Source: a virus. Taken from it: a stretch of 64,000 bases of DNA. The notes beneath the pieces are model-generated. The model was not told the DNA's origin. It ran no database searches and was given only the letters and a program-made list of their open reading frames with translations. Shown piece after piece: positions 6,031 to 53,911 of the stretch. Every line of letters begins with the position of its first letter. Position 1 is the stretch's first letter. The stretch covers positions 6,179 to 70,178 of the IMG/VR virus record IMGVR_UViG_3300028025_004808; one strand, written 5' to 3'. Both the position numbers and the translations under genes were made by a program.

Positions 6031-6279
6031 TTATTCCGAAGGTTTCTGCAATTTGGAAATTGACGGACCAAAAAGTTTTTCAATCTTTTTATCCAACTTG
6101 TTGTCAACTAAACCGTATAAATCTTCAATTAAATCATTAATAGTTGGCTTAATTTCTTCTAAATCTTCGGCTTTTTCATCTTCGCCCGTAGCCCTTAAAA
6201 CAGCAATAAAGCGTTCAAGTTCGTCAATCTTTATTTTTTTTATTTCGGAAGGCGTTGCTTTTGAATTTAAAGATGTCAT
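6031..6279 (-). CDS. Small helical charged protein (candidate immunity protein/partner of the 1283-aa protein)
   Basis: ATGA overlap with the upstream stop. GAGGA RBS. Function inferred from position only. Confidence 0.6.
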   Translation of the reverse strand: MTSLNSKATPSEIKKIKIDELERFIAVLRATGEDEKAEDLEEIKPTINDLIEDLYGLVDNKLDKKIEKLFGPSISKLQKPSE

Positions 6280-9200
6280 CTGTTCCTCAAAACTTTAATT
6301 TCTATTCCAGGATAAGCAACTCTAATAATATTTAACCACTGAGACCTACTCATTGACGGGAATAAGTCTTCAAGCAAATCAATGGTTGACTCGTCTATCT
6401 CTGCAATGTTGTTATTAGGTGCTGCTCTTTCTGCTGGAGTTGATGTAATCATTCTTCCAACTTCTGCTATGAGTTCATGAACACCATATCTGGCATACTC
6501 AGAATATTTTTGTGCAATTTTATCAAGGATTCCACCTCTATCCCTGAGTATTTCTGAAATCATATCATCTCCGAACAAGAGTTCGTCTATTAGGGGCTCT
6601 AGATTTTTTATAAACTCTTCTCTATTTTCTTGCAATTGTTTAGTTATCTCATCTATTGCTGTTTTTCTTACTTTTGCATCGCTCAAGCCAGGATTATTTT
6701 TTTTGACTAGTTGCTGTACGGCGCTCAAAACTTTTTCTTCTAAATATTTAGGCATATCTTTGTCTTCAAAAATTTTTCTGACAACTGACTCTGGGTCTTG
6801 CACTAAGTCTGTCAAGCCTTGAAGGTAAGTATCAACTCTTGTTTCAAATGTTTTTTGGTCAGAGCCCATCAATAGCGCATCTAAATAGTGGAACCATTCG
6901 TGTCTTAATGTTTGGTTAACGGTATCAAATTTTTTGTTTTCAAAAGTTGAGCCTATTGCTTCGTGACTACCGCTCTTTACATGGTCTTTACTTACTACAA
7001 TTAGAGCGCCAAACGGAGTGTGATAAGCAGAAACGCCTTCCATTGGATTGCCATCCGTCATGCCATTTCCGTTAATGAACATTGGAAGCCCAAACTCTTC
7101 AACAAGTTGTCTAAATGCTTCGTTATTTGTTAGTTCGTCTTCTAAAACTTTTCTTAAGTTCTTTTGTTCTCGTGGGTCATATTTGGCATTTTTTAATAAA
7201 GTTTTTAAATAAACTTCCGAGTTTTCTCTATCAGAAATTATTGAATACTTCAAAGCAGGTATTGTTTCAAAAAGTCTTAAAATAAAATCATCATCTGTTT
7301 CTGATTGCGATTTAATCGGAACAAAATTATTTACTACTTTTCTAATACCTTCCGGTGTATCAAGTTGACCTTTTAGTGAAAAATTAGGTATTTCAAGCGG
7401 TCTTCTTGGACCTTCTTTTCTACCAATACCCTCTGTCGGTAAGTATCTCATTCCACTAGATACTTTTGCAAGTTTTTTTATTACATAATTAAGTGAGTTT
7501 TTAGGAGAACCGTCTTGTCTTTTATTAAGTCTGTCACTTAGTTTTGCGATGAAAGCAACTACGCGGGCTTCTATCTTTTTGTCAATGTCTTCTATTTCGG
7601 ATATAGATGTTTTAGCGCCTGTTCCTGGAGTTTTGCCAAACGGGCTAGACGAACCAATGGCACCTGGATTAGCAGGTGGAAGCGCCCCAGGAATTCCAGG
7701 AGGCGGAACTGCTGCTCCAGGGATTCCAGGTGGAGGAACTGGTCCTGGAGTTACAGGCTGAGGTTGTATTGGTGATGGCTTGTTTTGCGGTTTATTTTGT
7801 GGTGGCGTATATCTTCCACCTTTTTTAGGCTTTGAACTAGAAGCAAGACCCATGAACTCGTCTGATTCTTTTAATGCTTCACGTTCTCCATCGGAAAGAG
7901 TATTTCCTTCTCTTGGCTTAGGAGATAGTTTGTTTCCATTCATAAACTCATCAAGTTTTGTTTGGTCCAAGATGTCAAGTTTTCCATCTTTAAAAGATGC
8001 AATCAGTCTTGGTGGCTTGCCTTGTTCTACATTGTTGTCCCATATATAGAACTCATCTACTTCGCCATTTGATACAGCATCAGAAACCATTCGCGGAATA
8101 GAGCGAGCAAAGTGCCCTGTCTGGTCTGGAATCTTTCTTCCATCTCTTTGTTGGCGTTCTTTGATTCTCTTTGATGCTTCTTCTGCGGGAACATGCACCC
8201 AGTGGGCAACAACCCTGTCTCCGTTTTGTCTAGCCTGAGCAATTATTGCTCGCTGTCTTGTTGAGCCAGCGCCAGTAGCAACAAGGTCCATGCCTTCTTT
8301 GCGTGCGTCATCCATTGTTCTTTGAGCAGACCGAAGCGATTCGTCATGAACCATTGGAGCACCAGCACCATCGTTGTATCCAGTTAATCCAAGTTTAATA
8401 AAATCTGGGTCAACATGGGCTGCTTCGTTTCTGCTGGGGACAATTCCCTGAACAACAAGATGTTCGTCAAGAACTGTTGATTTGCCACCACCAGTAGTTC
8501 CGCCTACTAGATAAGTAGTTCTCTGTTTTTTGTTTTTGTTTGAAGGCTTTACCAATCCTCTGATGATTTCACCCATCTTGCGCCCACCAAGGTTTCTAAA
8601 TGGGTTTGTCTCAGATGCGTCTGGGTTCTCAAGACCTTCAATTTTGATTGGCTCTGCTTTTATCGGTTTTGAAACAGAAGCAAACCCGCGCGCACTTCTA
8701 GAAGAGGCACCAAAGTTTTCTATTGGAGTACCAGTAAGTTTTTCGCGTTGCTTTGGCGTTGTTGCGTCAAACCATTTTCCTACAGACGAAACAGAAAGAG
8801 TAGAGATGGGTTTTTCAACATCTTGAGGCTTTGGAACACCGGGAACATTTGGTCTTTCAAAAGCGCTTCCGTCTTGAAGCAAGCCATCTCCGTCACCGTC
8901 TTCTGCTCTAGGGTCAAATCTTTGAGTGATTGTTCTTGCAGAAAATCTTGATACGCCAGATATTTTTGGACCAATCGCTTTACCGATTATTTCCTCTACA
9001 AGACTCTTTTTTCTTTTCTTTAATTCATTTGAAAGAATAGTTCTAACTACTTTTTGAGTTCTTTTTTCTTGATTGTTTCTGCCAAGTGCAGTCATACCAG
9101 TCAGGTTGTTGTAATCAGTAAGATTTGTACATGGCATCCATACAGTTTTTCCTGATTTAGAAACTCTTCTACTGATTCCGATACATCCAAGTTGTTGTGC

Positions 9201-10127
9201 TCTTCTTCTTGCAGATTCAATATCGATAAATACGTCAGTGTCGTTGTCTCTAGGCGAATATGCAGCCTGAGCGCTCTTTGCAGACATTCTGCTGGGTGAG
9301 GTGCGACCTTGTGGTAAATATTGTGCAGCCTGTTCTTTGGACAGGTTCATTGCATAAGCATCAGCATCCTTTGGATTAGAAAACTTTCCTAGATGCTCTC
9401 CAGTCCTTTTATAGTGCTTCCACGCTTCTCTGTCGCTAACAATCTTTCCAGTACCATCTTGGTTTCTGATAACAGTAGGAATCAAAACTGTTAATTTGCC
9501 TTCAGTCATGCTGATTGAACGAACAGTACTGATTGAACCGTCTTTGTTTTTAACTACAGGTCGATTGTTTAGGTTTATGTTGCCTTTTACTACTTGCCCT
9601 TTAGGCGGTTTTTTATTAGTGTTTTTTGCTGGCACTCGTGTGTCATCAGGTCCGCCAGGGGTGGATGCAAAATAACCATCTCCGTCTCCATCTCTTTGCT
9701 TGCCTGAAGAACTTCCCGCCTGCTCTGAGCCTATAGTTTGTCCTAAACTCTTTGTAGAAACTCCTGAAGATGTTGAGGCACCATAAGTAATCGGCGGTAT
9801 TGAACCACCATTTACCAGGTTTACTGAATTCCTTGGGGACACAAGACCGCCATTGGGAAGTGAATCAACTCCAAAAACTCTTCTTTCGCGAAGTTTTTCC
9901 CAGCCGTCTCTTCTTTTTCTTCCCTTTTTCTTTCTTCTACCAGAGCGCTCTTTCATGTCGTCCAGCGTCATGCGAGATTTAACAGACTCAGGTTGAGTAA
10001 TTGTTAAGTATTGCTTAATTGACGAACACGGAATCCATTCGCCATGAGAGTTTTGGTGCGCGCCAAAGCATCCAATTTGCGCCGCTTGCTTAATTGCAAG
10101 CAGTTTGGATACAAACCCGTTTTCCAC
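6276..10127 (-). CDS. 1283-aa multidomain head-cargo protein: zeta-toxin-like P-loop kinase plus C-terminal HEXXH metallopeptidase
   Basis: Zeta family: GGTTGGGKST, HVDPDFIK, VHDES, R..R....GRKIP, WDNN. Zincin: TLRHEWFHYLD...SEYA....HELIAE. Also two DGDGDG motifs, a GNINLNNRP domain and two GCxG...PC motifs. Confidence 0.8.
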   Translation of the reverse strand: MENGFVSKLLAIKQAAQIGCFGAHQNSHGEWIPCSSIKQYLTITQPESVKSRMTLDDMKERSGRRKKKGRKRRDGWEKLRERRVFGVDSLPNGGLVSPRNSVNLVNGGSIPPITYGASTSSGVSTKSLGQTIGSEQAGSSSGKQRDGDGDGYFASTPGGPDDTRVPAKNTNKKPPKGQVVKGNINLNNRPVVKNKDGSISTVRSISMTEGKLTVLIPTVIRNQDGTGKIVSDREAWKHYKRTGEHLGKFSNPKDADAYAMNLSKEQAAQYLPQGRTSPSRMSAKSAQAAYSPRDNDTDVFIDIESARRRAQQLGCIGISRRVSKSGKTVWMPCTNLTDYNNLTGMTALGRNNQEKRTQKVVRTILSNELKKRKKSLVEEIIGKAIGPKISGVSRFSARTITQRFDPRAEDGDGDGLLQDGSAFERPNVPGVPKPQDVEKPISTLSVSSVGKWFDATTPKQREKLTGTPIENFGASSRSARGFASVSKPIKAEPIKIEGLENPDASETNPFRNLGGRKMGEIIRGLVKPSNKNKKQRTTYLVGGTTGGGKSTVLDEHLVVQGIVPSRNEAAHVDPDFIKLGLTGYNDGAGAPMVHDESLRSAQRTMDDARKEGMDLVATGAGSTRQRAIIAQARQNGDRVVAHWVHVPAEEASKRIKERQQRDGRKIPDQTGHFARSIPRMVSDAVSNGEVDEFYIWDNNVEQGKPPRLIASFKDGKLDILDQTKLDEFMNGNKLSPKPREGNTLSDGEREALKESDEFMGLASSSKPKKGGRYTPPQNKPQNKPSPIQPQPVTPGPVPPPGIPGAAVPPPGIPGALPPANPGAIGSSSPFGKTPGTGAKTSISEIEDIDKKIEARVVAFIAKLSDRLNKRQDGSPKNSLNYVIKKLAKVSSGMRYLPTEGIGRKEGPRRPLEIPNFSLKGQLDTPEGIRKVVNNFVPIKSQSETDDDFILRLFETIPALKYSIISDRENSEVYLKTLLKNAKYDPREQKNLRKVLEDELTNNEAFRQLVEEFGLPMFINGNGMTDGNPMEGVSAYHTPFGALIVVSKDHVKSGSHEAIGSTFENKKFDTVNQTLRHEWFHYLDALLMGSDQKTFETRVDTYLQGLTDLVQDPESVVRKIFEDKDMPKYLEEKVLSAVQQLVKKNNPGLSDAKVRKTAIDEITKQLQENREEFIKNLEPLIDELLFGDDMISEILRDRGGILDKIAQKYSEYARYGVHELIAEVGRMITSTPAERAAPNNNIAEIDESTIDLLEDLFPSMSRSQWLNIIRVAYPGIEIKVLRNR

Positions 10128-10132
10128 CGTAG

Positions 10133-10468
10133 TTAGAAAATTCCAGTTGGAAGGTCGCCGTCATCCATAGGGTCAGCATTTTCACGACCCTCTAATTTAA
10201 GAACTGCTTTTTGGGCTTCTTCTGGATTGTCGGCATATCTCTTCTGATACAAACGAGCCTCATCAAGGTCATCTGTCCACTTAGCGTCTACCGTAGAAAA
10301 CATGCGGTCGTAAGCATTTTCTTCTTTTGCATTTGCAAGAGCGAGTATTCTCTCTGTCTCTTTTTGAACATCTTTTTTAAATTCTTCTCTCTTTTTAAGA
10401 GAAGTAGTAAATGGTGGCCAATCAAGAATAAGTGAATACTCTTTGTGTTTTAGCATGAACTCTTCCAC
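10133..10468 (-). CDS. Hypothetical acidic protein (111 aa)
   Basis: Tightly packed between two giant ORFs on the same strand. Has a TVDAK|W segment. Confidence 0.65.
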   Translation of the reverse strand: MEEFMLKHKEYSLILDWPPFTTSLKKREEFKKDVQKETERILALANAKEENAYDRMFSTVDAKWTDDLDEARLYQKRYADNPEEAQKAVLKLEGRENADPMDDGDLPTGIF

Positions 10469-10470
10469 TA

Positions 10471-13400
10471 TTAACTCGCCTTCTGGGTTGCGTAGATTTC
10501 TTTCATTCTATCCGCAGTCATTGCTTCGTCAACAATGGCCAGTGCGCCTCTGTTGAACCATACTATTGGTGAGTTGCCTTCATGGTCTACGCCGTCATAT
10601 CCATAAATCATGGCTGCATAGTGTTCGTCTTTTGACGTAATTGACTCCATGTACTTGATTGCAGCCCATAATTCCTGCCTCATGGCTGGAGGTGCTGTTT
10701 CCATGTATTTAAAGAAGTTTGAAGCCAACTGTCCTGCTTCCGTAGACCAAAGTGGGTCTCCATCGGCAAGCGCTTTAGAAATTGCAGCCTTTAGTTCTTT
10801 GACCAAATCCTGGGGGTCAATGTCTTCTGCACTCTGAGTGCCTCCACCGATTCCACGAAGTGCTTTGTGTATTTCACCCCACATTTTTCCGTGCTCTGCT
10901 CGGAGTTTTCCTGCTTCTGAAATTGTCAAAACTCTTGAATCTGGGGAAATAAGAGCAAGCGTTCCCTGGTTGTAGGCAAGATATCCATCCCATCCAGTTC
11001 CTGGTCTAGACCAGTATTCTCCAGGACCATAAACAGCACCACCTTCACCAGTGATGAATCTTTCTGTGTCTTCAATGTAATCTTTAATCCATCCGATTGC
11101 ACCTGACTCATTGTCTGCTGGTGGTGGAGGGGTTCCGTGACCACGCTGAATTACCTTCCAGCCTTGACCAGCAAGGTATTCGGCGTCCGCTTCAGTAATC
11201 GGTGTAGCAAGAGCGTTGTACCCCTGAACAGTCCATACGTTTCCTAGTTCCTTACCAGCGTTCTGACCCTTTTGTTCTTGAAGTAGTTCAAGTGCTCTTG
11301 GGTCGTCTTTCCCTCTGAAAAGGACTGCAAGTTTTTGAATGCCCTTTTCGTCAACTGTTGGAACTCCGCCTTTTCCTGTTCCGAAAACTGTTGGGTTAGC
11401 GGTTCTGGTCTGGTCAATACTCTTATTGACATCAGCCTCGCTTGGTCCGCCCTTAAGCCTACGCTTGATTCTTCTTCCAGTTCTTGCAAGTGCTCGTCTG
11501 GCTCTTTCTCTTGCACCAGGTGCGCCTGGTCTTTCTTCACCAAGACGACGAACGGTACCTCTTTTTTGTCTGCGAAGTTCTCTCTTGCGACGAGCCGCTT
11601 CAGCATTATCAAAAATTCTGTCAGAGAAATCCTTAAGTTTGCTGCTCTTTTTTGCGCCAATCAATGAACGCTTTTTTCCTGCCTGTGCTTCTTCAAAACC
11701 TGTGAAGTAAGAAGATTCAGCATTAAGGTCAAGTTGCGGTTTTGTTTTAGGGTCATCAAAAGGACTTACGAATGGAGATTCTTCGCCCTTCTTTGGCTTT
11801 GATGAAATACCAGCAGAATGTGTTTTTCCAATTGCTGCTCTTCTTGATGTAGTGGTGAGATGTTCAACAAGACTCCAGTCGTCTCTTTCGGACATCGCAT
11901 CAAAAACCATCAAATCTTCTGCTGCGGAAGTAAACTCTAATTTTTCTTTTTGAAGTTTCTTTAATTGATTTTGCGCTGATTTAATTTGTTTGTCATCATC
12001 ACCTGGCGTAAGGGAAGATATTTGTTTTTCAAGAGTACTAATTTCACCATCAATTTGTCTTGTTATGCTGTCAACGAGTCTTCTGTATGAAGTAAGTGCT
12101 TCACCAGAAATTCTTGAATCTTTTGTTAATGGCTTCCCGTCAGCATCAGTCTTTGTAACGCCTCTGCCTTTTTGACCGACAAATGTTCCCCACCATGTTC
12201 CAGTACCAGTGTCGTCAGGAATTGCTTTAACCCATTCCTGAATTTGCTCATAACGCTTCTTGAGGTTTTCTTTAACAATTTCTTTTTGCTTGTCATCAAG
12301 GGTCTCGTGAAACTGACCGTCAGTGTCTTTCATCTTGTCAACACCAGGGCGGCGTCTAACAACCGCCTTGCCAGAGCGTGATGCAAAGCCTTCAACCTGA
12401 CGCTGAGTTCTGGCTTCAGAAACTCTTTTTGAAACACCACGAGCCTGTGCTGCTGGTTTTGCAGCATCAGCAGCCTGTTCAGGCTTTACTCTTCTTTGAC
12501 CACCAGGTTTGCGTGCTGCTGGCTTATTGTCTCCTGAGCCGCCTGCACGACGGGCAGCCCTACTTCCAGAAGAGCCTGAGTTTGCTCTATTGAGGTCTCT
12601 CCAGGCTCTAGTTGCTGCGCCTGTATCAACAGAGCCACCAGATGCACGGTCGTTTACGCCAGGTATTGCTGGTCGCTGGAATGGTGTTCCTTCTTGAACA
12701 ATGCCGTCGCCGTCGCCGTCCCAAGCCTTAGGGTCAAAGGACGCTGCTGCTGTACGACCTGCTCTTCTGGCAATTCTTGAACCTGAACCAATGCTTTCGC
12801 CTAGTCCTTTTTCGGAGATTCCGTTTTCAAGGCTCTTTGTTTCCAGTTCAGAAGCACTACCCATTTTTGTGCGCTCAATACCATTTGAGATAATGGCTGA
12901 TTTAAGACGCATTCCAATTCTTCTTTCAGAAGAACGACCAACCGCCGTATCAACACGCTGTCTTAAAGATTTGTTTTGCTCGCTATCAGGTGCTGCGTTA
13001 TACATCCACTTATCGAAGTTGAAAGCGTAATTGTTTGCTCTTGCTTCGTGAAGGAAACTTCCTTCTTTAATACTGCTGCGAACATGGAGGCATTTGTAGG
13101 AAACTGCTGCAGCATATTGATAAGCGGTAAAGTGACCAATAGGTGTGTCAACAACTGCTGGAACTCTTGATTCGGACTTAACTCTTACTGAACCAGCATG
13201 TCTGTATGCTTTTGATTTTACAAAATTAGATGCAGAACTCTCTCCGTAACCAAATGTTGTAATAAGAGATTTGATATCTGTGTCTGAAACGGTTTTAAAT
13301 GGTCCTTGAATTATTCCTGCTGGAATTTGTGACTCTTCAAGAGTCTTTGACTCAACAGAGTTTGCCCACTGTGCCCACTCTTTGCCTTGTCCGTCATAGC

Positions 13401-13488
13401 CGTAGTACTTGACGCCATATTCGTCTTGTACGGCAATAGCAAACTTCTCATTGCGTAGTGCGTCAAATAGAGTAGAAATTTGCTTCAT
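10471..13488 (-). CDS. 1005-aa head-cargo protein with C-terminal ADP-ribosyltransferase-like domain
   Basis: C-terminal IQRGHG...GEGGAVYGPGEYW...GYDGVD...IVWFNRGALAIV resembles ART-like tails of phage head-morphogenesis (MuF) proteins. Contains FDPKAWDGDGDGIVQEGTPFQRP. Confidence 0.65.
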   Translation of the reverse strand: MKQISTLFDALRNEKFAIAVQDEYGVKYYGYDGQGKEWAQWANSVESKTLEESQIPAGIIQGPFKTVSDTDIKSLITTFGYGESSASNFVKSKAYRHAGSVRVKSESRVPAVVDTPIGHFTAYQYAAAVSYKCLHVRSSIKEGSFLHEARANNYAFNFDKWMYNAAPDSEQNKSLRQRVDTAVGRSSERRIGMRLKSAIISNGIERTKMGSASELETKSLENGISEKGLGESIGSGSRIARRAGRTAAASFDPKAWDGDGDGIVQEGTPFQRPAIPGVNDRASGGSVDTGAATRAWRDLNRANSGSSGSRAARRAGGSGDNKPAARKPGGQRRVKPEQAADAAKPAAQARGVSKRVSEARTQRQVEGFASRSGKAVVRRRPGVDKMKDTDGQFHETLDDKQKEIVKENLKKRYEQIQEWVKAIPDDTGTGTWWGTFVGQKGRGVTKTDADGKPLTKDSRISGEALTSYRRLVDSITRQIDGEISTLEKQISSLTPGDDDKQIKSAQNQLKKLQKEKLEFTSAAEDLMVFDAMSERDDWSLVEHLTTTSRRAAIGKTHSAGISSKPKKGEESPFVSPFDDPKTKPQLDLNAESSYFTGFEEAQAGKKRSLIGAKKSSKLKDFSDRIFDNAEAARRKRELRRQKRGTVRRLGEERPGAPGARERARRALARTGRRIKRRLKGGPSEADVNKSIDQTRTANPTVFGTGKGGVPTVDEKGIQKLAVLFRGKDDPRALELLQEQKGQNAGKELGNVWTVQGYNALATPITEADAEYLAGQGWKVIQRGHGTPPPPADNESGAIGWIKDYIEDTERFITGEGGAVYGPGEYWSRPGTGWDGYLAYNQGTLALISPDSRVLTISEAGKLRAEHGKMWGEIHKALRGIGGGTQSAEDIDPQDLVKELKAAISKALADGDPLWSTEAGQLASNFFKYMETAPPAMRQELWAAIKYMESITSKDEHYAAMIYGYDGVDHEGNSPIVWFNRGALAIVDEAMTADRMKEIYATQKAS

Positions 13489-16108: not shown

Positions 16109-16545
16109 TTTGTCTCCATTTGGATTGGAAGGGTTTTCATTGTTTTTGCCCTAACTATTGATGTGTTTTGAGTTTCTAAAAGCGATTTAAATTCAGAAAT
16201 TCTGTAGTTGATGGATTTAGCCTTCATCTTTGATTTTAGAACATCAGAGACAATTTGAACACCAGATAACATATGCTCTGATATTTTCTGAGTTTTATTT
16301 ACAAAAACCCTGTTCCATCTATCTTCATCAGGTCCTTCTGGGTCTTCATTGTCCCACAGAAATTTATGAAAATTAGTTGATTTAATTGGCTTTAAAGTAT
16401 TTGACTTAGATGCCGTTTTCCAAAAGTTTACAACCTTTGAAGTTTCTCCATCAGACACAACGCCATCTGATTCTTTGTTTTTTGCGTCAATAATATAATA
16501 AAACTTTTTTTCTGAGTCTATTGTCCCAACAAATACGGCTTTCAT
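16105..16545 (-). CDS. Hypothetical protein (146 aa)
   Basis: ATGA overlaps at both ends. Several K|S sites near the C-terminus. Confidence 0.65.
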   Translation of the reverse strand: MKAVFVGTIDSEKKFYYIIDAKNKESDGVVSDGETSKVVNFWKTASKSNTLKPIKSTNFHKFLWDNEDPEGPDEDRWNRVFVNKTQKISEHMLSGVQIVSDVLKSKMKAKSINYRISEFKSLLETQNTSIVRAKTMKTLPIQMETK

Positions 16546-22169: not shown

Positions 22170-22185
22170 ACGGGCCTACGCTTTC

Positions 22186-23586
22186 TTAGATACTCGGGTC
22201 GGTGTTTCTAAACTCCTCCTCAAGGAGTTCAAATTCAATGAGCGAAGATTTGATGTCATCTGGAAGGTCTGCTGATTTTTCTGAACCGCTTACCCAGTTG
22301 CTTGGAATAAGTTTTTCTTCACCAAGAGCCTTTGCACGCTTCATGATGTGACGCTTTGCTGCTTCCTTGTCGCTTGCACGACCATATGCTGAAATAGCAT
22401 TCTTGAGGTCAGATGCATTAGCAATTGGGAAAGAGCCGTCTGGAAGAGCGGTCCCCTCTTTAGCCATTTGGTTTCTAACATCTTCGGTGAAAGCACGCTT
22501 GAGTGCAATTTCTGCTGCTTCTGCTTCAATTGCTTCTGCTTCTTCTGGTTCGTACTTGTCGTATCCAAGAACTTCACCGTCAAGAGAAACGAAAACGTCG
22601 TATGACTTTCCATCAAGTCCTTCAATTTCAACTGCGTAAGCGTCAAAGCCTTCAAAAATGTCTGGCTCAACTGCTACAACATCGCCCTGAATTGACTTGA
22701 CAGCAATCTCTGCAGCCTCATGAAGGTCAATAACCATGATTGAGTCAAGAGCAGACTTTTGCTCAAAAGCGCTGTCGTCCAACTTGTGGAAGCCGAGAAC
22801 TTCTGCGGTTGTTCCGTCAACAAAAACTTCTACTGAGCGACCATCTTTAGTGTGTACATCAACAACAAACATGTCTGCATCTGAAGAATAACCAGAATCA
22901 AGAACTGTTCCATTGAACATCTTTTCGGCAATTCCCTCAACAGAAAGAAGACCAGGCATTCCCTTTTCGGCAACACAACCACCAGGGCAGTCGTCACAAA
23001 CGGAAGAACCGCCTGGGTAAACTTTTCTTTCAATTGCGCACATGTATGCGTTTCTGCCAAGTTCTGCAGACTTTGCACCCATTGTTGCAAGACGACGCTT
23101 GCGTGCTGACTCAAGGTCGTCACTCATGCCGTACATCTTCATTTCTTCGTCATCGGCTTCTTCATCGCCCATGTCTTCTTCGTCGTCTTCTTCTTCGTCA
23201 TCTTCGCCTGGCATTCCCATACCAACTGCTTTTCTTGACTTCTTCATCGGCATTTCTGCGTCTTCGTCTTCTTCTTCGTCCATAGGCATGCCCATACCCA
23301 TGCCCTTTTTGCCCTGACCCATGACAGATACTTCGTCGTCTTCTTCATCATCAGTGATGAGGTCTTGGTTCATGTTTCTTCCTGGAATTGGCTTCTTGGA
23401 ACCCATTTCATATCCCTTTTCGTCGTATTCTTCGACTGGAACCATCTTCATTTCAATGGGCATTGCACCGCACTTGCCACATACTTTTGCGCCAGGCGTG
23501 TACCCGCACTCAGTAGCATTTGCGCCCTTTGCACACTTCAGGACATTGCCGTCTGCATCAACGCTGACTTCAACTTTTTCTGCCAT
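22186..23586 (-). CDS. 466-aa acidic head protein with Cys clusters, PepSY-like repeats and DUF6582-like C-terminus (possible scaffold or protease regulator)
   Basis: EAAEIAVKSIQGDVVAVE...AYAVEI...GKSYDVFVSLDGEVL is PepSY-like, with a second copy upstream. ALPDGSFPIANASDLKNAISAYGRA...KRHIMKRAKALG. Poly-D/E tracts. CAGGAG RBS. Confidence 0.7.
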   Translation of the reverse strand: MAEKVEVSVDADGNVLKCAKGANATECGYTPGAKVCGKCGAMPIEMKMVPVEEYDEKGYEMGSKKPIPGRNMNQDLITDDEEDDEVSVMGQGKKGMGMGMPMDEEEDEDAEMPMKKSRKAVGMGMPGEDDEEEDDEEDMGDEEADDEEMKMYGMSDDLESARKRRLATMGAKSAELGRNAYMCAIERKVYPGGSSVCDDCPGGCVAEKGMPGLLSVEGIAEKMFNGTVLDSGYSSDADMFVVDVHTKDGRSVEVFVDGTTAEVLGFHKLDDSAFEQKSALDSIMVIDLHEAAEIAVKSIQGDVVAVEPDIFEGFDAYAVEIEGLDGKSYDVFVSLDGEVLGYDKYEPEEAEAIEAEAAEIALKRAFTEDVRNQMAKEGTALPDGSFPIANASDLKNAISAYGRASDKEAAKRHIMKRAKALGEEKLIPSNWVSGSEKSADLPDDIKSSLIEFELLEEEFRNTDPSI

Positions 23587-23649
23587 TATTTACTCCTGTT
23601 GTTGTAAGTACGGACGCAGTGTCAATACCAAAATTAATTAGTGTCTCTA

Positions 23650-23678
23650 AGTATAACTTAGCACGCTAGTTCCGTCAG
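23650..23678 (-). promoter_or_regulatory. Putative sigma70-like promoter CTGACG-N17-TATACT with imperfect palindrome in spacer
   Basis: Intergenic, upstream of the 466-aa gene. Spacer region reads AACTAGC-GT-GCTAAGTT. Confidence 0.4.
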
Positions 23679-23690
23679 TTATGACCACTA

Positions 23691-26600
23691 TTATGCTTCG
23701 GGAACTATATTTATGGTTCTACTTTGTCCGCGTGAATTTGTTGCTGTTCGTGTTGTGTCTGTTATTGCGTTTGTCTTTTTATCAATAAATGTTGACTTGG
23801 CTGCACCAGCAACCATCTCAATAAGTTTTGAATACCAAGCGATTCTTTTTTCTCCGCCGTCAGCAAGTTGAGTGTCAAGAGCAAACATAAGACCATCAAG
23901 AATCTGGTCTGCCTCTTCAGCGGTAAAGTAAATACTTCCCACATTTGTTCTTCTGCTTCCAGTTTTTCCTGCTTCGTCTCTGGAAATTAATTCAGACAGT
24001 TTTCTGAGACCAGCAATTGCTCTCTTATCCCCGTCTTTGGTTGCTCTTTTTATTTCTTTGTCTAGAGATGATTGAACATCTTTAAAGAATGTCGCCTCAT
24101 CTGTAATCATTGTCTTTCCGCCAGCAGAGGTTGAAGCAAAACCTCTTGTCCCAGGCTTGCCAGTACCGTTAAGTTTTTTAAGGTCTTTTTGGATGTCTTG
24201 TGCAAGGTTTATGTTAAATTTTTTGCTTGTTCCACCAGTTGCCGAAGCAAAATTAATTTGACTGCTTGACGGTTTTTTGCCTCCGATAATCCACTCATCT
24301 TCAGAATAGGCAGTTCTTGTTCCCAAAAGGGTTTTAAGAATCTTTCTTGCTGCTGCCAAGTTGGCTCTTTCGTCTGGAGTTAACTGTTCGTCTTCAAATG
24401 CGCTGACATAGTCATCTAAAACTTCAATTGTTCTATCAAGGCTCCTGATGGTGAAGTCATATCCATTTTCTTGCAAAGATGTCGTAACTTCATCCCACAA
24501 GTCTCTGTGCTCGTTTATTTCAGAATCGCTTGAATCAATTCTTGATGACGAGGCGTCAATTGCCTCAAGAAACTTATCAAGTCTTGATTCTCTTTCTGTT
24601 TTTGCATCCTGAGCGTTTGAAGACTTTTTAATCTTGGGGGCTTTTGGTTCTGAAGATGTTTCGCGTTTTGGTTTAGCCGCTGCACCTTCTGTTGGTTCTC
24701 TAGGAACGCCCATTCTTTCAATTGTTCTTTGTTCTTCTCTTCTTGCAGCGAGTTCTGCTCTTCTCGCAGCAGGAGACATTTCTGCAAGTTCTTCTTTGTC
24801 CATTTGGTCGCCAAGGTCGGCAAGAAGTTTTCTATAAGCAACGCGAGACATTTCGCTTCCGCTATCTGGGTTGCCTTGAGTCAAAGCCCATTGAAATTTT
24901 TCGTCTGTTGTAAGTTCATCCCAATTATCTGGCTTTATTTCATCAAATGTTTTGCCAGCAAATTGAGTTTCTGCACCAACTTCAGTACCTGCTCTATTTT
25001 TTTCTCCTTCTCGTCTTGCTCTTCCTGGAGCAAGATTTCCACCTGGAACCATTTCGCCAACTCCACGGGCTCTTCTTGCTCCGCCTCCACGCTCGTCATC
25101 ACCAGGACCATCAATATTTGATGCAAATCCAACCCTTGAAGCGCTTACTGAACGAGCGGGTTTCTTTGTTAGTGAAGCAAATGGTTTTGCTTTAGCACCA
25201 GAAGCATCGCTTCGTGATGTATCAGACGGGTTGTCAACCAACTTTCCTGTTGACCAGTGGTCGACAATCCAGTCTCTTCTAGCAATAAGAATTTGAGCAA
25301 GCCTGTCTCCATCTTCTTTGTCGCTAATTTGCTGGGAAACCAATTTCTTGATGTCGTCATCTGTTACTTGAGAAAGTTCTTTTACTTGTCTCGCAACCTC
25401 TGAAGGTTCAATGTCTTTGTAGTAAGCCTTGGAGACAGCGGTCTGAACAGGCTGTCCAGAACGTGTTACGCCATTTATTAAGTTTTCAACTTCGTCAACT
25501 TTAGGACCAAACGGTGGGTTTGTCTTTAAACCACTGTATCTCTGCGCTCTAAATATCAAGCCACCACCAGAGTCGGCCATTACTGCCTCTCCGTTAGGAC
25601 CCTGGACAATGTTTGACATATTGCCAGTGCCGTCCCAGTTTGCAAGCCATGCATTAGCAATAAGGCTTCTTTGAACTGATGCTTTAAACTTTGAGTCTTT
25701 AGACATCTGAGAATGACTTACTTCTCTTATTCTGTCATCCCATTCACTGACTCTTTGAAGTTTTCCGTTATGAACACCACGGTTGTAGTCAATGGTCGGA
25801 ACACCAAGAAGTTGATACAGTTTGCTTGTCAAAATTTCTGTTTCTCCGCGGAATTCTTCGCCAGACCTAGAATGCTTTACATAGTAAACCTTTCCAGTTT
25901 TTGGGTCCATATATCTTCCTGCTTCGTTAAGACCTCCTGCACCACCGACTTTTTTCCAGCCAGTAGTTGTGTGGACGTAGGGAAGTGGTCCTGCTCCAAA
26001 AGTTAATGCGTCTCTAAATCCTGCAGTTGGCTGACTTGTGTTTGATGCAAAGCGGCGTGGTCCTCCACTTCCTGGTCCCATGTTTGAATACATGGTGCGA
26101 AGCGCTTTCCATCTAGAAGCCGACATTTGTCCGCTGTTGCTATCATGCTCTCGGATAATTTCTTGAGCAACACGAAGACCTTTTTGCTGACGAGCCCACG
26201 CAACGTATTGTCTTTGCTGTAGTTCGGTCATATCTGTTGGTGCGCCATTATTGGCACGTTTCCCAGAAGAGGCAAACCCCTTTGATTTCTTGGGATTGGC
26301 TATTTCGTTGATGTCGTATTTTCCATCAAGAGATTCTGCTGCTTGATGCAATACACCGTAAATATCAGAAGAAACAACACCGTTGTCAAAAGAATCTTCA
26401 ATTGCAGCAGCAATATCATCAAACTGCTGTGGTGTTACTTCGAATTTTCCACCTTTTGACTCTTCAAGAATCTTCTTCATTGCGAGCAAAGGCTGACGGT
26501 TTTTTGTATTGTCAAGAAGCATTCCAACTTCTTCATTAAGAACACCAATTGTGTCATCATCAAGGGTGATTGAGAGGTTCTTTTGAGGAGTAACTGTTCC

Positions 26601-29498
26601 GTCTTTGGTAATTTTCTTTCTTGGCGTTTTTCCAGATGAAGCAAGTCCTGGATTTACACGAGCAAGACCTTCACTCTCTTCAAGAATTCTGCGAGCATCT
26701 TCTCTTGAAACAACACCAGTAATTTCTCCACTTTCAAGACCTTCTGCTATTCCTTCATTAATTACGGTGTTTAGTTCGTCTAATTCATCCTGACTAATAT
26801 CGCCTTGCTCAACGTTGCGTCCGCCGTTAGGTACGCCTGTTAGTTGTTCAATTTCTTCGTCTGACAAACCAAATTCTCTTAATTTTTCAAATACAGCATT
26901 ATCGCGTTCTGCTCTCATATTGCGTGCTTCGGTAGCATCAACATTTCCCCGTTCATCTCTTTGTATGCCCGTAGGTCTTACAATTCGATTATTGCCACTG
27001 CCGCTATTAGAAGCAAAAACACGAATGTTTTCTTTTTCAATTTTGCCTCTATCTGCTCTGTATTTAGAATCTCTACGAGTCATATTTAGGTAGTCAATTA
27101 AATCGCCACCAGTGATTTTTTCATCACCAAATTCTTTAGCAAGAGAGACGATTAAGGGGTTTGCACCGTCTTTTGACGCGCCTTCGCGCAATGCATCAGC
27201 AAGTTCATTTACTAATTCTTCAGGCTCAATTGACGGGTCGTTTTCTATAATTCCATCAATTGCTTTTTCTAATTCGTAATTAAAATCTTCAAGAGACATT
27301 TTCCCATCAATAATTTTTTCAGAATCGCTACGTAATAGGTTTACGCCATCCTGTAAACGCAATGTTTCTTCAAGGTCTTCTGGTTCTCCGCCTTCTCTTA
27401 GCGATGTCATCAAAAGTTGTCTGTCTAATCTTGCTGATTCTTTTGCTTCTTCTATTGTTCTGTAAGAATCAGGTTCACGTCTTTTCTCCCAAAAAGACTT
27501 AGAACGAGAAGTTAATTGTTTAAAAACGTCATCAAGGTCATTGCTTGCGTTATCTACAATTTCTTTAATTTCTTCTATTTCACTGTCGGTTCCTGTTTTT
27601 TTAACAGAGTCAACATGCAGGTCAAGCATTTTCTGAATGGAAAATGCCATGTCATCCATAAAATCTTCAATTTTTTCTTGTGAAGAAAATTGTTCAATAA
27701 TTTTTTCGTCAGAAAGCATTTCCGCTAATCGTTTTCTTGCATTAGATACAGACTTACCAACACTGTCTTTAAGTTTTTCATCAGTAAGGTTTGTTAATAC
27801 TTCTTTTGCCCCATCAATAATTTTTGAAGAGTCTCCCTTGCGCCCTACGGCAGACGCTGCAGCGTCTTCCATGCGTTTAACTAAAGATTTTGGCAATTCG
27901 TTTTTTGAAACAACTTCTCCGCTTACGGATTGTGCTGCTGGGACAACGCCTGATTGACTGGCAAATCCCTCTGTTGCTCTTCTTTTGTTTACTTTTCCTC
28001 TGGTTGAAAAGTCATTAACACCAGGAATTGCAGGGCGTTGGAAGGGCGTTCCTTCCTGAACGATTCCGTCATTATCTCCGTCCCATGCGTTCGGGTCGAA
28101 GTTTGCGGAAGCAGCCCTACCGGCTGCCCTTACTTTTCCCGGGCTACCACCGATACTTCTACCGATTCCCTTCTGGGCGTTATCTATAGCCTCAACCAGG
28201 TCTTTTGTTATGCCTGACGTAATTAGGATTCCATCTTCTGTAACTACGGATTCAACCCTGTGGTAATCAAAAATTGGGTCAAGCAATGATTTGGTGTTAA
28301 ACGCTTCTTCTAGTTTAACGGGAATCAGATAACTCTTTGTTTCAAGGTCTTCTTTTTCTGCAGAAGAAATTACATCTTGAAGGTTTTCAAGAATTGCTTT
28401 TAATTTTGAAAGATTTTTCTTGTTGATTGTCTTGCCAACTTTTTCATCAATCTCTTCAGCAATTAAATCTTCTAATTGCTCAATCTGAGATGCAAGGTCT
28501 GATTTTTCGTCAGATTTCGGCATAATTTCTCCATAGCCCTGCTGATATCCAGGCTTTACCTGCATTGGCATTGATGGCATCTGTGATGGAACGACAATGC
28601 GTGAACCGCTATTTCCGCTATTAGTTACCTCTGGCTTACCAAACATAAATGTTGAGTAATTGTCTGGAGTGTGATAACCGATTCTATAAACGGTTGGCGC
28701 TCCATTGGGAGAGAACTTCATGAATACAGCAGTACTCTCAGTTGCTTCAATCAATTTAATTTTTGAGTTAGTTCTTTCAGAAATTTCTCTTTCAAGGCGC
28801 TGACGCTGTTCTCCACCAAGTGGGCGAGCCAGGCCTTCAGCAAAAATTGGCTTTTCTGATTCGTAATCGTCGTCATCGTCTTCCCGAATTACAATCATGT
28901 TTGGTTTTTGCGGCATTTGTCCCATCATATGATGAGGACCCATCATGCCCCAGCCTTTTTCTGATTCAGCCAAAGTGATGGCATCGTCAGACTTGACGGA
29001 TATTGTTCCCGTCAATTGATTGGCTCCATGAAGAACTGGAGAGACTTCGTAAAGTTCTACTTCTTTAAGAACATTGGCTTGCATGTTTGGGTCAAAGATT
29101 GCATCAAGAGTCTTATATCCAATTGACCATTCTTGTTCTTGCCCAAAGAAAGCAACATTTGCAAACGCTTCGCGACCCTTTTCGGAGTTCAGGTTGAACT
29201 GAACTCTTGCGTAAAGACCACCAATGCCAGCCTTAAGCATCTTGGACGGAAGCCTTCTATCGCCTGGAGCAACTTCGTAAATCTCTAGAACTTTACCGAT
29301 TGGGTCGTTCCAGTTGTGTCCCCAAACCACTCTTGGCTTGCGTCTTTGAAGGCTTTTTGCAAAAGCGCCAGATATAAGAACATCACCCACGGAGTCTTTA
29401 TTCCCAATGCCAGCAACGAAGCACTCAACAATTCCCTGTGCTTCATCAATATTAAACTGTCCAGGCATGGCCTTGAACTCAATGTTGGTGCTTGCCAT
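23691..29498 (-). CDS. HK97-family prohead protease (N-terminal ~170 aa) fused to ~1750-aa multidomain extension including a PI3/4-kinase/HipA-like domain
   Basis: S78 protease: GNKDSVGDVLISGAF, WGHNWNDPIGK, EWSIGY, LYEVSPVLHGAN. Kinase: YYVK, E.EILTSKLYQLLGVP, NAWLANWD...NI, MADSGGGLIFRAQ. Lies between portal and MCP. Confidence 0.9.
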   Translation of the reverse strand: MASTNIEFKAMPGQFNIDEAQGIVECFVAGIGNKDSVGDVLISGAFAKSLQRRKPRVVWGHNWNDPIGKVLEIYEVAPGDRRLPSKMLKAGIGGLYARVQFNLNSEKGREAFANVAFFGQEQEWSIGYKTLDAIFDPNMQANVLKEVELYEVSPVLHGANQLTGTISVKSDDAITLAESEKGWGMMGPHHMMGQMPQKPNMIVIREDDDDDYESEKPIFAEGLARPLGGEQRQRLEREISERTNSKIKLIEATESTAVFMKFSPNGAPTVYRIGYHTPDNYSTFMFGKPEVTNSGNSGSRIVVPSQMPSMPMQVKPGYQQGYGEIMPKSDEKSDLASQIEQLEDLIAEEIDEKVGKTINKKNLSKLKAILENLQDVISSAEKEDLETKSYLIPVKLEEAFNTKSLLDPIFDYHRVESVVTEDGILITSGITKDLVEAIDNAQKGIGRSIGGSPGKVRAAGRAASANFDPNAWDGDNDGIVQEGTPFQRPAIPGVNDFSTRGKVNKRRATEGFASQSGVVPAAQSVSGEVVSKNELPKSLVKRMEDAAASAVGRKGDSSKIIDGAKEVLTNLTDEKLKDSVGKSVSNARKRLAEMLSDEKIIEQFSSQEKIEDFMDDMAFSIQKMLDLHVDSVKKTGTDSEIEEIKEIVDNASNDLDDVFKQLTSRSKSFWEKRREPDSYRTIEEAKESARLDRQLLMTSLREGGEPEDLEETLRLQDGVNLLRSDSEKIIDGKMSLEDFNYELEKAIDGIIENDPSIEPEELVNELADALREGASKDGANPLIVSLAKEFGDEKITGGDLIDYLNMTRRDSKYRADRGKIEKENIRVFASNSGSGNNRIVRPTGIQRDERGNVDATEARNMRAERDNAVFEKLREFGLSDEEIEQLTGVPNGGRNVEQGDISQDELDELNTVINEGIAEGLESGEITGVVSREDARRILEESEGLARVNPGLASSGKTPRKKITKDGTVTPQKNLSITLDDDTIGVLNEEVGMLLDNTKNRQPLLAMKKILEESKGGKFEVTPQQFDDIAAAIEDSFDNGVVSSDIYGVLHQAAESLDGKYDINEIANPKKSKGFASSGKRANNGAPTDMTELQQRQYVAWARQQKGLRVAQEIIREHDSNSGQMSASRWKALRTMYSNMGPGSGGPRRFASNTSQPTAGFRDALTFGAGPLPYVHTTTGWKKVGGAGGLNEAGRYMDPKTGKVYYVKHSRSGEEFRGETEILTSKLYQLLGVPTIDYNRGVHNGKLQRVSEWDDRIREVSHSQMSKDSKFKASVQRSLIANAWLANWDGTGNMSNIVQGPNGEAVMADSGGGLIFRAQRYSGLKTNPPFGPKVDEVENLINGVTRSGQPVQTAVSKAYYKDIEPSEVARQVKELSQVTDDDIKKLVSQQISDKEDGDRLAQILIARRDWIVDHWSTGKLVDNPSDTSRSDASGAKAKPFASLTKKPARSVSASRVGFASNIDGPGDDERGGGARRARGVGEMVPGGNLAPGRARREGEKNRAGTEVGAETQFAGKTFDEIKPDNWDELTTDEKFQWALTQGNPDSGSEMSRVAYRKLLADLGDQMDKEELAEMSPAARRAELAARREEQRTIERMGVPREPTEGAAAKPKRETSSEPKAPKIKKSSNAQDAKTERESRLDKFLEAIDASSSRIDSSDSEINEHRDLWDEVTTSLQENGYDFTIRSLDRTIEVLDDYVSAFEDEQLTPDERANLAAARKILKTLLGTRTAYSEDEWIIGGKKPSSSQINFASATGGTSKKFNINLAQDIQKDLKKLNGTGKPGTRGFASTSAGGKTMITDEATFFKDVQSSLDKEIKRATKDGDKRAIAGLRKLSELISRDEAGKTGSRRTNVGSIYFTAEEADQILDGLMFALDTQLADGGEKRIAWYSKLIEMVAGAAKSTFIDKKTNAITDTTRTATNSRGQSRTINIVPEA

Positions 29499-44229: not shown

Positions 44230-44248
44230 TATAAAAAAACACAAGTAG

Positions 44249-44279
44249 TTGCGCCACGATAAGTTTCGTGTGCTAATGT
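44249..44279 (+). promoter_or_regulatory. Putative promoter TTGCGC-N19-TAATGT with spacer inverted repeat CACGA-N6-TCGTG
   Basis: Intergenic. The -10-like box ends 7 nt before the chaperone ATG (possible leaderless mRNA). Confidence 0.45.
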
Positions 44280-44286
44280 CTCTGCT

Positions 44287-44996: not shown

Positions 44997-45028
44997 TCTC
45001 TAGTTCTTTTATTCCTATTGGGGTTACA

Positions 45029-49945: not shown

Positions 49946-49947
49946 TC

Positions 49948-51555
<1,608 letters not shown>

Positions 51556-51557
51556 AC

Positions 51558-53910: not shown

Positions 53911-53911
53911 A

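Follow-up and report, generated by a model that had tools for sequence, protein, structure and literature searches.

Why would three otherwise unrelated proteins, encoded between the portal and capsid genes of one phage, carry the same short stretch of sequence? The question is raised by a 64,000-nt stretch of DNA (hereafter the window), bases 6179–70178 of the 70,178-bp IMG/VR virus record IMGVR_UViG_3300028025_004808, which is a contig of an uncultured myovirus (CheckV completeness 47%). Its portal-to-capsid interval holds seven minus-strand open reading frames (ORFs) of 1935, 466, 1875, 206, 667, 1005 and 1283 amino acids (aa). The 1935-, 1005- and 1283-aa proteins share an element, here termed the cassette, in which a lysine motif and a basic stretch precede an aspartate-rich core. 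We put at about even the chance that the cassette combines a processing site with a terminal tag that binds Ca2+ and belongs to virion-borne cargo.

The first-pass annotation had located the cassette in these three proteins, together with a degenerate fourth stretch, and all four are present on the minus strand where it had placed them (Table 1). A search of the contig with the 66-aa cassette of the 1005-aa protein returned three matches, namely itself, the copy in the 1935-aa protein (E 1.3e-25, 67% identity) and that in the 1283-aa protein (E 1.8e-13, 48%). Copies 1 and 2 are identical at 40 of 55 residues; 26 of these 40 are written with a different codon and 14 with the same one, and the nucleotide identity is 65%. 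This argues for selection on the protein and against a recent duplication of DNA, as the annotation had already concluded from the synonymous differences. The extent of the element needed correction: its location stands, but the common segment is longer and begins 30–45 residues upstream of the cassette Lys. In blastp, aa 194–296 of the 1005-aa protein align with aa 414–512 of the 1935-aa protein (50% identity over 103 aa, E 7e-23), and its aa 181–278 with aa 346–431 of the 1283-aa protein (98 residues, E 8e-14). No further pair of segments among the three proteins scored better than E 0.05, so they were rightly called otherwise unrelated. The degenerate copy keeps K-S-L-G..I-G and DGDGDG and lacks FDPxA and VQEGT..RP; it is directly followed by A-S, giving Y-F-A-S, and matches the cassette of the 1005-aa protein at E 0.057.

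The anatomy of the cassette was derived from an alignment of 25 cassettes from different protein contexts and from 40 orthologues of the 1005-aa protein. The first part consists of hydrophobic and acidic residues with helix-like periodicity, which end in a Lys that is invariant in 25 of 25 aligned cassettes. This is followed by a small residue, Leu or Ile and Gly (the Gly of x-[LI]-G being at least 90% conserved), then by x-x-[IL]-[GS] and Gly-rich residues. The second part is a basic stretch, R-R-A-x-R, the sole helix of the cassette that AlphaFold2 (AF2) predicts. The third is the core, [FY]-D-P-x-A-W-D-G-D-[GN]-D-G-[ILV]-V-Q-E-G-T-P-[FY]-[QE]-R-P-A-[IV]-P-G, with about 20 invariant or near-invariant positions; its wider consensus of about 30 aa reads [FY]-D-P-x-A-x-D-G-D-G-D-G-x-V-Q-E-G-T-x-x-x-R-P. 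Among the 40 orthologues the conserved span is only about 45 residues long, with a low-complexity linker after it.

Folded alone, the cassette was modelled with low confidence (predicted local distance difference test, pLDDT, 53.5). In the AF2 model of the whole 1005-aa protein, pLDDT is below 50 at aa 202–287, which hold the cassette, and at aa 300–373; a folded N-domain precedes these two stretches, and the helical and C-terminal regions that follow them are predicted well. The cassette alone is thus predicted, on these models, to be disordered. No Pfam or NCBIfam family matched it, and the 1005-aa protein belongs to no family in Pfam, NCBIfam, PHROGs or PDB, except for a 28-residue match of its cassette to phrog_7924. 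A Foldseek search of the whole 1005-aa model against PDB gave nothing at E ≤ 0.001, and its best rows (an ATP synthase subunit, a cyanophage pre-ejectosome chain at E 0.42 and PARP10 at E 2.3) were discarded as evidence. PDB sequence searches with the three proteins returned no meaningful match, and an ESM Atlas search for look-alikes no usable one. Cassette profiles run against PDB picked up ankyrin-repeat 'DPNAxDxDG' stretches (E 0.008–0.1), a PGRP stretch and designed proteins, which were judged to be chance matches.

What might such a core do? Its D-G-D-G-D-G-x-V-Q-E conforms to the D-x-D-x-D-G pattern and places an acidic residue at position 10, which Excalibur repeats do as well; from this resemblance to Excalibur and EF-hand Ca2+ loops we infer that it may bind Ca2+. 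When the cassette profile was compared by hhalign with the 8-repeat Excalibur protein P0114, the probability was 67% (E 5.2e-5), a suggestive result over 24 columns only; P0114 itself, although a profile match, was set aside as a genuine Excalibur protein and not a relative. The pattern D-x-D-x-D-G-x-x-x-E is common to the cassette and Excalibur (PF05901), whereas the F/Y-D-P-x-A upstream, the G-T-x-x-x-R-P downstream, Gln in place of Cys and the phage-specific occurrence set the cassette apart.

A different kind of Ca2+ response is known from the FrpC self-processing module of RTX proteins, in which D414-P415 is followed by D419, D421, D423 and G424 within 177 residues that also contain three further EF-hand-like loops and a Trp pair (PMC7078468). 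In the 1005-aa protein, D252-P253, D257, D259, D261 and G262 stand in the identical register, D-P-x3-D-x-D-x-D-G with the loop at +5, including FrpC's scissile Asp-Pro, and like the module the cassette would be disordered without Ca2+. Even so, a Ca2+-triggered self-cleavage at Asp-Pro strikes us as the least credible of the explanations, because the FrpC module, with its 177 residues and four to five Ca2+ sites, is much larger, and because distant relatives do not keep the D-P pair. Conservation of the far shorter cassette stops about 45 residues after D-P, the pair is replaced in the wider family by D-A, N-S, E-S, E-A, D-R, K-P or I-P, and no solved structure matched in sequence.

The position of the core within the polypeptide was counted for 200 distinct copies in 295 IMG/VR loci. 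Natural N-termini account for 64 of them, at most 60 residues from an in-frame upstream stop (in L091, L093, L097, L111 and L112 the stop lies a few codons upstream of the Met), and natural C-termini for 18, with a stop within 45 residues downstream. Two copies are cut by the locus edge, and 116 are internal. Upstream of the internal copies, at a distance of 8–50 residues, K-[AGST] is found in 113 cases and K-x-[LI]-G in 78. The median distance from Met1 to the first Asp is 29 residues among the N-terminal copies of the protein set (n = 35, some perhaps truncated gene calls); from the residue after the Lys to the first Asp it is 25 residues (10–90% range 15–30).

This Lys element has a parallel in capsid maturation. 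The HK97 capsid protein is cleaved at K103/S104 (PMC10275583), where, in the alignment with the capsid protein of the window, the HK97 chain reads K-S-L-G; the K-[GSA]-[LI]-G of the cassette has the same pattern, with Lys at P1. In the protein set, K-x-[LI]-G lies 8–50 aa upstream of 168 of 234 internal copies, compared to 5% of random windows in the same proteins, and the less specific K-[AGS] precedes 218 of 234, compared to 49%. Among the 33 ORFs of the window, K-[GSAT]-[LI]-G occurs eight times, once in the sheath and seven times in proteins from the protease fusion through the capsid (twice in the 1283-aa protein and once each in the capsid, 1005-, 1875-, 466- and 1935-aa proteins).

A protease of the matching family is encoded in the same interval. 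Residues 23–166 of the 1935-aa protein are a Peptidase_S78 domain (Pfam, E 8.7e-11), and the protein matches phrog_80 at E 1.1e-28 and TIGR01543 at E 2e-13, the latter under the cut-off of that family. The S78 protease is present in eight of the eight related long contigs that have portal and capsid genes. In three of them (G002, G003 and G008) the protease ORF is only 562–573 aa long and has no cassette. Those of G002 and G003 (562 and 573 aa) align with aa 1 to about 443 of the 1935-aa protein, that is, from the protease through a conserved second domain, and stop 4–20 residues past the column of the cassette Lys. These ends, which give the Lys its most direct support as a cut site, suggest that at the Lys a protease unit sufficient in itself is joined to the tag with its cargo. 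The putative site would also be flexible, as aa 202–287 of the 1005-aa model indicate.

Unfused effectors tell the same story from the other side. In locus L105 (contig G003), a 1344-aa protein has the peptide directly after Met and a second copy after x-E-T-K-A-A (aa 662–700), followed by Zeta_toxin and ADP-ribosyltransferase domains; in L097 (contig G002), a 679-aa protein with a weak PI3/PI4-kinase match likewise has it after Met. Since such effectors carry the peptide directly after Met, we treat it as a terminal tag of the cargo and not of the carrier. The peptide travels with the cargo: it is absent from stand-alone proteases, comes first in unfused effectors and stands right after the Lys seam in fusions.

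Which proteins carry the cassette? An exhaustive profile search covered 1.84 billion representatives, IMG/VR was searched with four sub-profiles, and prokaryotes were represented by one genome for each of 185,579 species. At E ≤ 1e-3 the exhaustive search gave 884 clusters, and at E ≤ 1e-10 it gave 198; many of the proteins are 1000–3350 aa long and have one to four copies. A word-indexed search yielded 100 proteins at E ≤ 0.01 from 487 candidates; these were orthologues of all three window proteins as well as proteins with sigma-70 region 4, RNase_T with DUF3626, pentapeptide repeats or KTSC. The four sub-profiles found 428, 154, 244 and 83 relatives in IMG/VR, compared to only 6 in the prokaryote genomes, all on contigs of metagenome-assembled genomes. 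Thus, by its occurrence the cassette is virus-specific.

In cultured phage records, tblastn with the cassette gave no match, but the low-complexity filter of BLAST may mask DGDGDG. The 1935-aa protein matched such records over at most 13% of its length and P0120 not at all. P0157 matches gp205 of Rhodococcus phage E3 and cluster-C mycobacteriophages over a different domain, and the E3 and Rizal regions contain no D-[GA]-D-x-D-G; the same holds for the protease fusion of Gordonia phage DalanDe. So far as BLAST shows with this filter, the cassette is absent from cultured phages.

Pfam domains in 33 diverse profile matches included DUF7178 (4), DUF3626 (4), ADPrib_exo_Tox (3), Zeta_toxin (2) and NUDIX (2), with one each of ART-PolyVal, Phage_portal, PI3_PI4_kinase, RNase_T, Peptidase_S78, HipA_2, GNAT, DUF3721, DUF3990 and AAA_33. 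Judged by these domains, the carriers appear to be mostly giant 'polyvalent' effector proteins, some of them fused to the prohead protease or the portal. Iyer et al. (2017, PMC5512222) describe the polyvalent proteins of phages and conjugative elements as giant and multi-domain (ART, Zeta-toxin-like, kinase, NUDIX, nuclease, peptidase); their genes accompany those of the virion, and packaging and injection are predicted for them. The cassette carriers have the same repertoire of domains, and the window has an S78 fusion, a Zeta_toxin domain and three cassette genes between portal and capsid; a difference is that no MuF domain was found here. The main text of PMC5512222 contains no mention of calcium, Ca2+, DGD, DxD, EF-hand, Excalibur, S78 or HK97, and literature searches on DGDGDG in phages, DxDxDG with capsids and Excalibur Ca-binding in bacteriophages returned no description of the cassette.

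The 1283-aa protein illustrates this composition. It consists, in order, of DUF3721 (aa 5–36, E 1.8e-11), the degenerate cassette, a second DUF3721-like stretch, the full cassette, a Zeta-toxin-like P-loop kinase (Zeta_toxin, aa 528–670, E 1.7e-11), a Pro-rich linker and a C-region with HExxH, and it matches phrog_16619, 'minor head protein'. The succession of DUF3721 and degenerate cassette, then of a DUF3721-like Cys stretch (about aa 313–345) and full cassette, looks like an internal duplication. No family library matched the HExxH motif (H-E-W-F-H), and the region might be a second peptidase.

The conservation, composition, terminal position and domain company of the cassette, as well as its match to a gene boundary, are direct observations, and together they are consistent with the following course of events. 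The cassette would be a composite linker element of virion-carried polyvalent effectors, after whose Lys the S78 prohead protease of the phage would cut within the prohead. The cut would separate the downstream cargo from an N-terminal carrier, be it the protease-scaffold unit, the DUF3721 unit or the N-domain of the 1005-aa protein. The freed cargo would then start with a short basic stretch and a peptide of about 30 residues that probably folds only with Ca2+, a partner or both. This tag might tether or organise the cargo in the Ca2+-accessible head, lead its exit at ejection or do both, and lose its Ca2+ in the low-Ca2+ cytoplasm. A peptide that is terminal or made terminal, predicted to be disordered alone, phage-specific and conserved amid variable surroundings bears the marks of a docking or tag peptide.

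The earlier proposal that cleavage at the Lys exposes a new N-terminus is therefore coherent with the invariant Lys, the HK97 pattern, the 64 natural N-termini and the protease ORF ends, with the cleavage itself put forward by analogy. Its companion, a signal for capsid targeting, portal docking or ejection, is supported in part; neither capsid, portal nor protease emerged as the target. A bolder version, in which the Ca-loop peptide is a portable Ca2+-gated delivery tag, equivalent to the T4 capsid targeting sequence or the loading peptide of encapsulins, and is necessary and sufficient for head retention and for co-injection with DNA across a large clade of uncultured myoviruses, is offered only tentatively, and we would sooner expect it to fail than to hold.

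Several observations weigh against the proposed processing site and Ca2+-binding tag, and the first of them concern the metal loop. The Excalibur family of Pfam did not match the three window cassettes even at E ≤ 10, in the same scan in which P0114 scored 1.7e-37. The Excalibur signature is D-x-D-x-D-G-x-x-C-E with a conserved Cys; the repeats of P0114 show this Cys, and the cassette has Gln there in 25 of 25 cases. A canonical EF-hand loop has 12 residues, with Asp or Glu at position 12, and lies between two helices (PMC7078468). The core is not of this kind, because its position 12 is Thr or Ser, its acidic residue, a Glu, is at position 10 and AF2 predicts no flanking helices.

Further points come from the capsid protein of the window, which has G-T-L-G, without Lys, where the HK97 site aligns. 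The stretch around its own K91-S-L-G is variable, and no more than 50 of 120 homologues retain the Lys; the case for it as the maturation site is weakened accordingly, the HK97 site aligning about 55–60 residues further on. In the same 120 homologues, Lys140 is kept in 119 and F159, G160, R164 and D165 (F-G-[TS]-I-Q-R-D-P) in all, and both Lys140 and aa 159–166 are close to where the mature N-terminus of HK97 aligns. A prediction of the complex of the protease domain, Ca and aa 198–292 of the 1005-aa protein scored 0.17 against a mark of 0.32; it was run without controls and counted neither for nor against binding.

Another difficulty is a second linker motif, (R/G)-G-F-A-S followed by Ser/Gly-rich residues, which from its sequence looks like a polyprotein processing motif and is the main uncertainty about the fate of the tag after assembly. 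Each window cassette has a (G)FAS 7–111 residues downstream, and a cut there might remove the tag from the cargo instead of leaving it in place. The 7,437 residues of the seven head-module proteins contain FAS 13 times (1.4 expected) and the other 26 ORFs 6 times (2.6 expected). The 1935-aa protein contains eight (about 0.4–0.5 expected), and the 1005-, 1283-, 1875- and 206-aa proteins one or two each. Relatives have 8–16 sites per protein that read R-G-L-R-S, R-G-L-A-S, R-G-M-A-S, G-M-R-S or [FL]-S-S, the hydrophobic residue depending on the lineage; no covariation of this residue with the invariant F-G-[ST] of the capsid protein was seen. Among the 40 orthologues of the 1005-aa protein, G367 is invariant and S370 at least 90% conserved. 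Being much more frequent, R/G-G-[FLM]-[AR]-S could be the real protease site.

Taken together with the order K-G-L-A-G-R-I-G, core, R-G-L-A-S in a divergent relative, these features would suit a removable internal pro-peptide that, like the T4 targeting sequence, loads the precursor and is then excised, here at the Lys and at G-[FLM]-[AR]-S, with no role in the mature virion. We consider this unlikely, although it deserves to be kept in mind. The unfused N-tagged effectors (679 and 1344 aa) lack any G-[FLM]-[ARSG]-[ST], fusions to protease or portal would need no loading signal, and GFAS-like motifs recur in a 1638-aa tail protein that the prohead protease should not reach. Of the four FAS motifs in the latter, two belong to GFAS-like linkers rich in Ser and Gly. 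The stretches at aa 41, 219, 456, 767 and 939 of this tape-measure/lysin-like protein include T-F-A-S-A-S-G-G-G-S, D-G-F-A-S-S-S-G-G-S and K-E-L-G-G-G-I-G, the last similar to the first cassette element. This indicates that neither motif is confined to head proteins.

The fusions bear on the Ca2+-binding tag itself as well. Cargo fused to protease or portal should need no loading tag, which counts against pure capsid targeting, and since the peptide is kept in such cargo, prohead loading cannot be its sole role. It might also tether the cargo in the head, order its exit or act as a switch that depends on Ca2+ and distinguishes virion from cytoplasm.

The genomic context of the copies was assessed in ten long contigs and the 295 loci, which belong mostly to one broad clade. 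The 80 best IMG/VR loci with a window-type cassette are all of one clade, and hence not independent observations; 77 of them have a portal, protease or capsid gene in the locus. Of 215 further loci found with the sub-profiles, 98 share with the window, at 60% identity or more, a portal, capsid, protease or terminase. Most variants are hence located in different giant proteins from a single broad group of 130–150-kb phages, three of which have terminal repeats.

The ten long contigs contain 23 profile matches. Twelve lie between the portal and capsid genes, and in five contigs the first of these is inside a protease-fusion ORF of 1227–4905 aa. Four are at the N-terminus of giant ORFs (2703–3365 aa) 10–23 kb past the capsid gene, four are 45–55 kb from the head genes (in G002, G003 and G008), one is in a 77-aa frame and two are in T4-like contigs (Gp23 E about 1e-150, Peptidase_S77). 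A restriction to head modules, which the first-pass annotation had proposed to check by profile search, is thus not borne out: only 12 of 23 copies lie there, and the rest include copies near replication genes and copies in T4-like tail-fibre clusters. In G002 and G003 the cassette genes adjoin ThyX, primase-helicase and, in L105 only, a cytosine methylase.

The peptide thus accompanies enzymatic effector domains outside head modules too, and it is kept in fusions without need of a loading signal. This would fit a module directed at the host after injection, either a Ca2+-sensitive switch that silences toxic domains until Ca2+ is lost or a ligand of a host protein. We regard this role as improbable, given that C-terminal copies sit on small non-enzymatic proteins, that the identical module stands before unrelated enzymes, so direct regulation of active sites is unlikely, and that no search pointed to a host target.

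Copies of this C-terminal kind also weigh against the proposed tag where they lie among the tail-fibre genes of T4-like phages, whose protease is of the S77 family and whose capsid is gp23. In G004 (L154), the T4-like contig whose gene neighbours were scanned, the peptide forms the end of a 147-aa protein (phrog_7759); the gene is surrounded by tail-fibre and baseplate genes and is about 85 kb away from gp23. The presence of the core in such phages means that its role cannot depend on an HK97-type protease or capsid, and since it occurs there outside head modules, any partner would have to be something other than the S78 protease or the HK97 delta domain per se. Small proteins of 84–229 aa were seen to end exactly with G-Y-N-P-x-A-x-D-G-D-G-D-G-I-V-Q-E-G-T-x-x-E-R-P-x-G-T and a stop (L154 9644–10087; L125 9398–10087; L151 9827–10081; L117 9848–10102); of these loci, L154 is the one placed on a T4-like contig.

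Two further roles have to be weighed here. The peptide might merely be an exosite that recruits the prohead protease to the adjacent Lys, for which the tight Lys-core spacing speaks. This is very unlikely, as the 64 N-terminal and 18 C-terminal natural copies have nothing to cut off and the T4-like phages have S77 and not S78. Alternatively, it could be a generic Ca2+-stabilised spacer or terminal cap without address function, which rigidifies or guards chain ends in Ca2+-rich surroundings outside the cell and is found near Lys through a joint preference for linkers. The core does occur at N-termini, at C-termini and internally, and in unrelated phage types including the T4-like tail-fibre clusters; it is similar to Excalibur loops, and the weak match of a small two-copy protein to PG_binding_1 (E 0.014) is a hint of a location outside the cytoplasm. 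Our doubts about a mere spacer are nonetheless considerable. Positions that bind no metal (F/Y-D-P, W, V-Q-E-G-T, R-P-A) are strongly conserved across hypervariable proteins, which suggests a partner or a fold beyond metal ligation, and a Lys-small site is found upstream of 113 of the 116 internal copies, with K-x-[LI]-G in 78.

How would a processing site with a Ca2+-binding tag compare to known systems? Phages carry enzymes in the head and inject them. The capsid targeting sequence (CTS) of T4, of about 10 residues, is present on internal proteins and Alt, lies upstream of the cut and is removed; to our knowledge, outside T4 the signals that mark injected head cargo are largely unknown. Like the CTS, the cassette would be a short terminal peptide found on otherwise unrelated proteins that travel in the head and enter the host, and it would be coupled to cleavage by the prohead protease. 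It differs in that the peptide lies downstream of the putative cut, the protease is S78 and not S77, there is no likeness in sequence and it bears a metal-loop signature. Compared to a CTS-type leader, it is naturally N-terminal in 64 of 200 copies, and G-[FLM]-[AR]-S follows it in the window and is absent from the two unfused effectors.

With the HK97 gp5 site the cassette shares a first element that matches K-S-L-G, in a phage that has an S78 protease and a close gp5 homologue (Table 1). Here the element occurs in cargo proteins and not only in the capsid, the window capsid has no Lys at the homologous position and cleavage is presumed. Encapsulin cargo-loading peptides and the C-terminal targeting tail of the HK97 protease are short disordered terminal peptides that load cargo into HK97-fold shells. 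In contrast to these, the cassette is at most a hypothetical binder of the capsid protein, and it occurs even in cargo that forms part of a protease or portal fusion.

The cassette is thus a candidate for a shared delivery or processing element of one large subset of polyvalent proteins, and it recurs in 884 protein clusters and flags giant effectors in 130–150-kb uncultured phages. If it is a tag for processing and delivery, injected effectors could be listed from metagenomes, the substrate motif of HK97-family proteases would extend beyond the capsid protein and a candidate handle for loading proteins into HK97-type shells would be at hand. If the portable delivery tag were true, its presence would define the injected effector repertoire from sequence, and the loading of foreign proteins would become usable. 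Were it only a Ca2+ spacer, it would still be a new, phage-specific variant of the DxDxDG loop.

Table 1. Features of the window discussed in the text (a slash marks the putative cut after Lys)
Feature	Position in window	Strand	Details
Major capsid protein gene (HK97-fold), end of head module	4550–5911	−	phrog_10 E 6.4e-62; HK97 gp5 chains E 1.5e-50
K/SLGSSYSIG, major capsid protein aa 91–100	5612–5641	−	N-terminal, delta-domain-like part
1283-aa protein gene (P0001)	6276–10127	−	Pfam, PHROGs
Further (G)FAS linker motif site	8676–8687	−
Cassette copy 3, 1283-aa protein aa 382–431	8835–8984	−	GK/AIGPKIS ... FDPRAEDGDGDGLLQDGSAFERPNVPGV
Degenerate cassette, 1283-aa protein aa 125–153	9669–9755	−	TK/SLGQTIG ... 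RDGDGDGYF
1005-aa cargo protein gene (P0002)	10471–13488	−	AF2: folded N-domain, disordered linker with cassette, helical region, folded C-domain
G-F-A-S, 1005-aa protein aa 367–370	12379–12390	−	End of disordered linker after cassette copy 1
Segment common to 1005-aa and 1935-aa proteins, 1005-aa side	12601–12909	−	aa 194–296
Cassette copy 1, 1005-aa protein aa 226–280	12649–12813	−	EK/GLGESIG, basic stretch, FDPKAWDGDGDGIVQEGTPFQRPAIPGVND core; Lys227 codon at 12808–12810
667-aa protein gene	13485–15488	−
1875-aa protein gene	16542–22169	−	Further (G)FAS at aa 1151
K/GLGRTIAEA, 1875-aa protein aa 178–187	21609–21638	−	Lys-x-Leu-Gly element without Ca-loop core
466-aa protein gene	22186–23586	−
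1935-aa protein gene (P0003)	23691–29498	−	N-terminal HK97-family prohead protease and cargo
First of eight (G)FAS in 1935-aa protein, aa 511–514	27957–27968	−	Others start at aa 828, 1075, 1150, 1440, 1458, 1750, 1787
Cassette copy 2, 1935-aa protein aa 442–496	28011–28175	−	QK/GIGRSIG ... FDPNAWDGDNDGIVQEGTPFQRPAIPGVND; Lys443 codon at 28170–28172
Portal gene, start of head module	29594–31627	−	Phage_portal, E 2.2e-48
Large terminase	31914–33218	+
Tail sheath	42297–43763	+
1638-aa tail protein gene	45029–49945	+

Some of the neighbouring proteins have features of their own. The 466-aa protein is probably related to scaffolds; it is acidic, with Glu/Asp runs, G-M-G-M repeats and an N-terminal Cys cluster. 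Its end domain (about aa 380–440; D-G-S-F-P-I ... D-L-x-N-A-I ... G-R-A ... A-K-x-H-I) has a counterpart at the C-terminus of the protease fusion, 1633 aa long, that Gordonia phage DalanDe encodes. The portal contains, at about aa 400–500, a long insertion rich in Pro, Gly, Ala and Met (P-G-M-P-P-G-A repeats), followed by Q-T-K-S-A-D-D.

The 1875-aa and 667-aa proteins (aa 212–257 and 118–163, respectively) have in common a weak motif bracketed by Cys residues, R-C-P-x-G ... R-F-T-[ND]-x-R ... C (blastp E 0.15). On the 1875-aa chain this motif follows the K-G-L-G-R-T-I-A element at a distance of about 35–65 residues, and it may be an alternative module to the Ca-loop core.

In a subfamily whose core starts with E-P-Y-D-P-D-A (L097 9998–10300; L105 8024–8330 and 10001–10300), conservation reaches about 45 residues beyond R-P-A and reads [LI]-V-D-x-x-G ... 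R-V-V-D-x-D-G-x-x-V-x-Y-x-P-[ST]-Y. This extension suggests a larger, folded version of the module of about 85 aa. The largest protease fusions were seen on complete contigs of related phages with terminal repeats, as open frames of 4905 aa (G006:C1, about 44100–58800) and 3988 aa (G007:C1, about 63900–75900).

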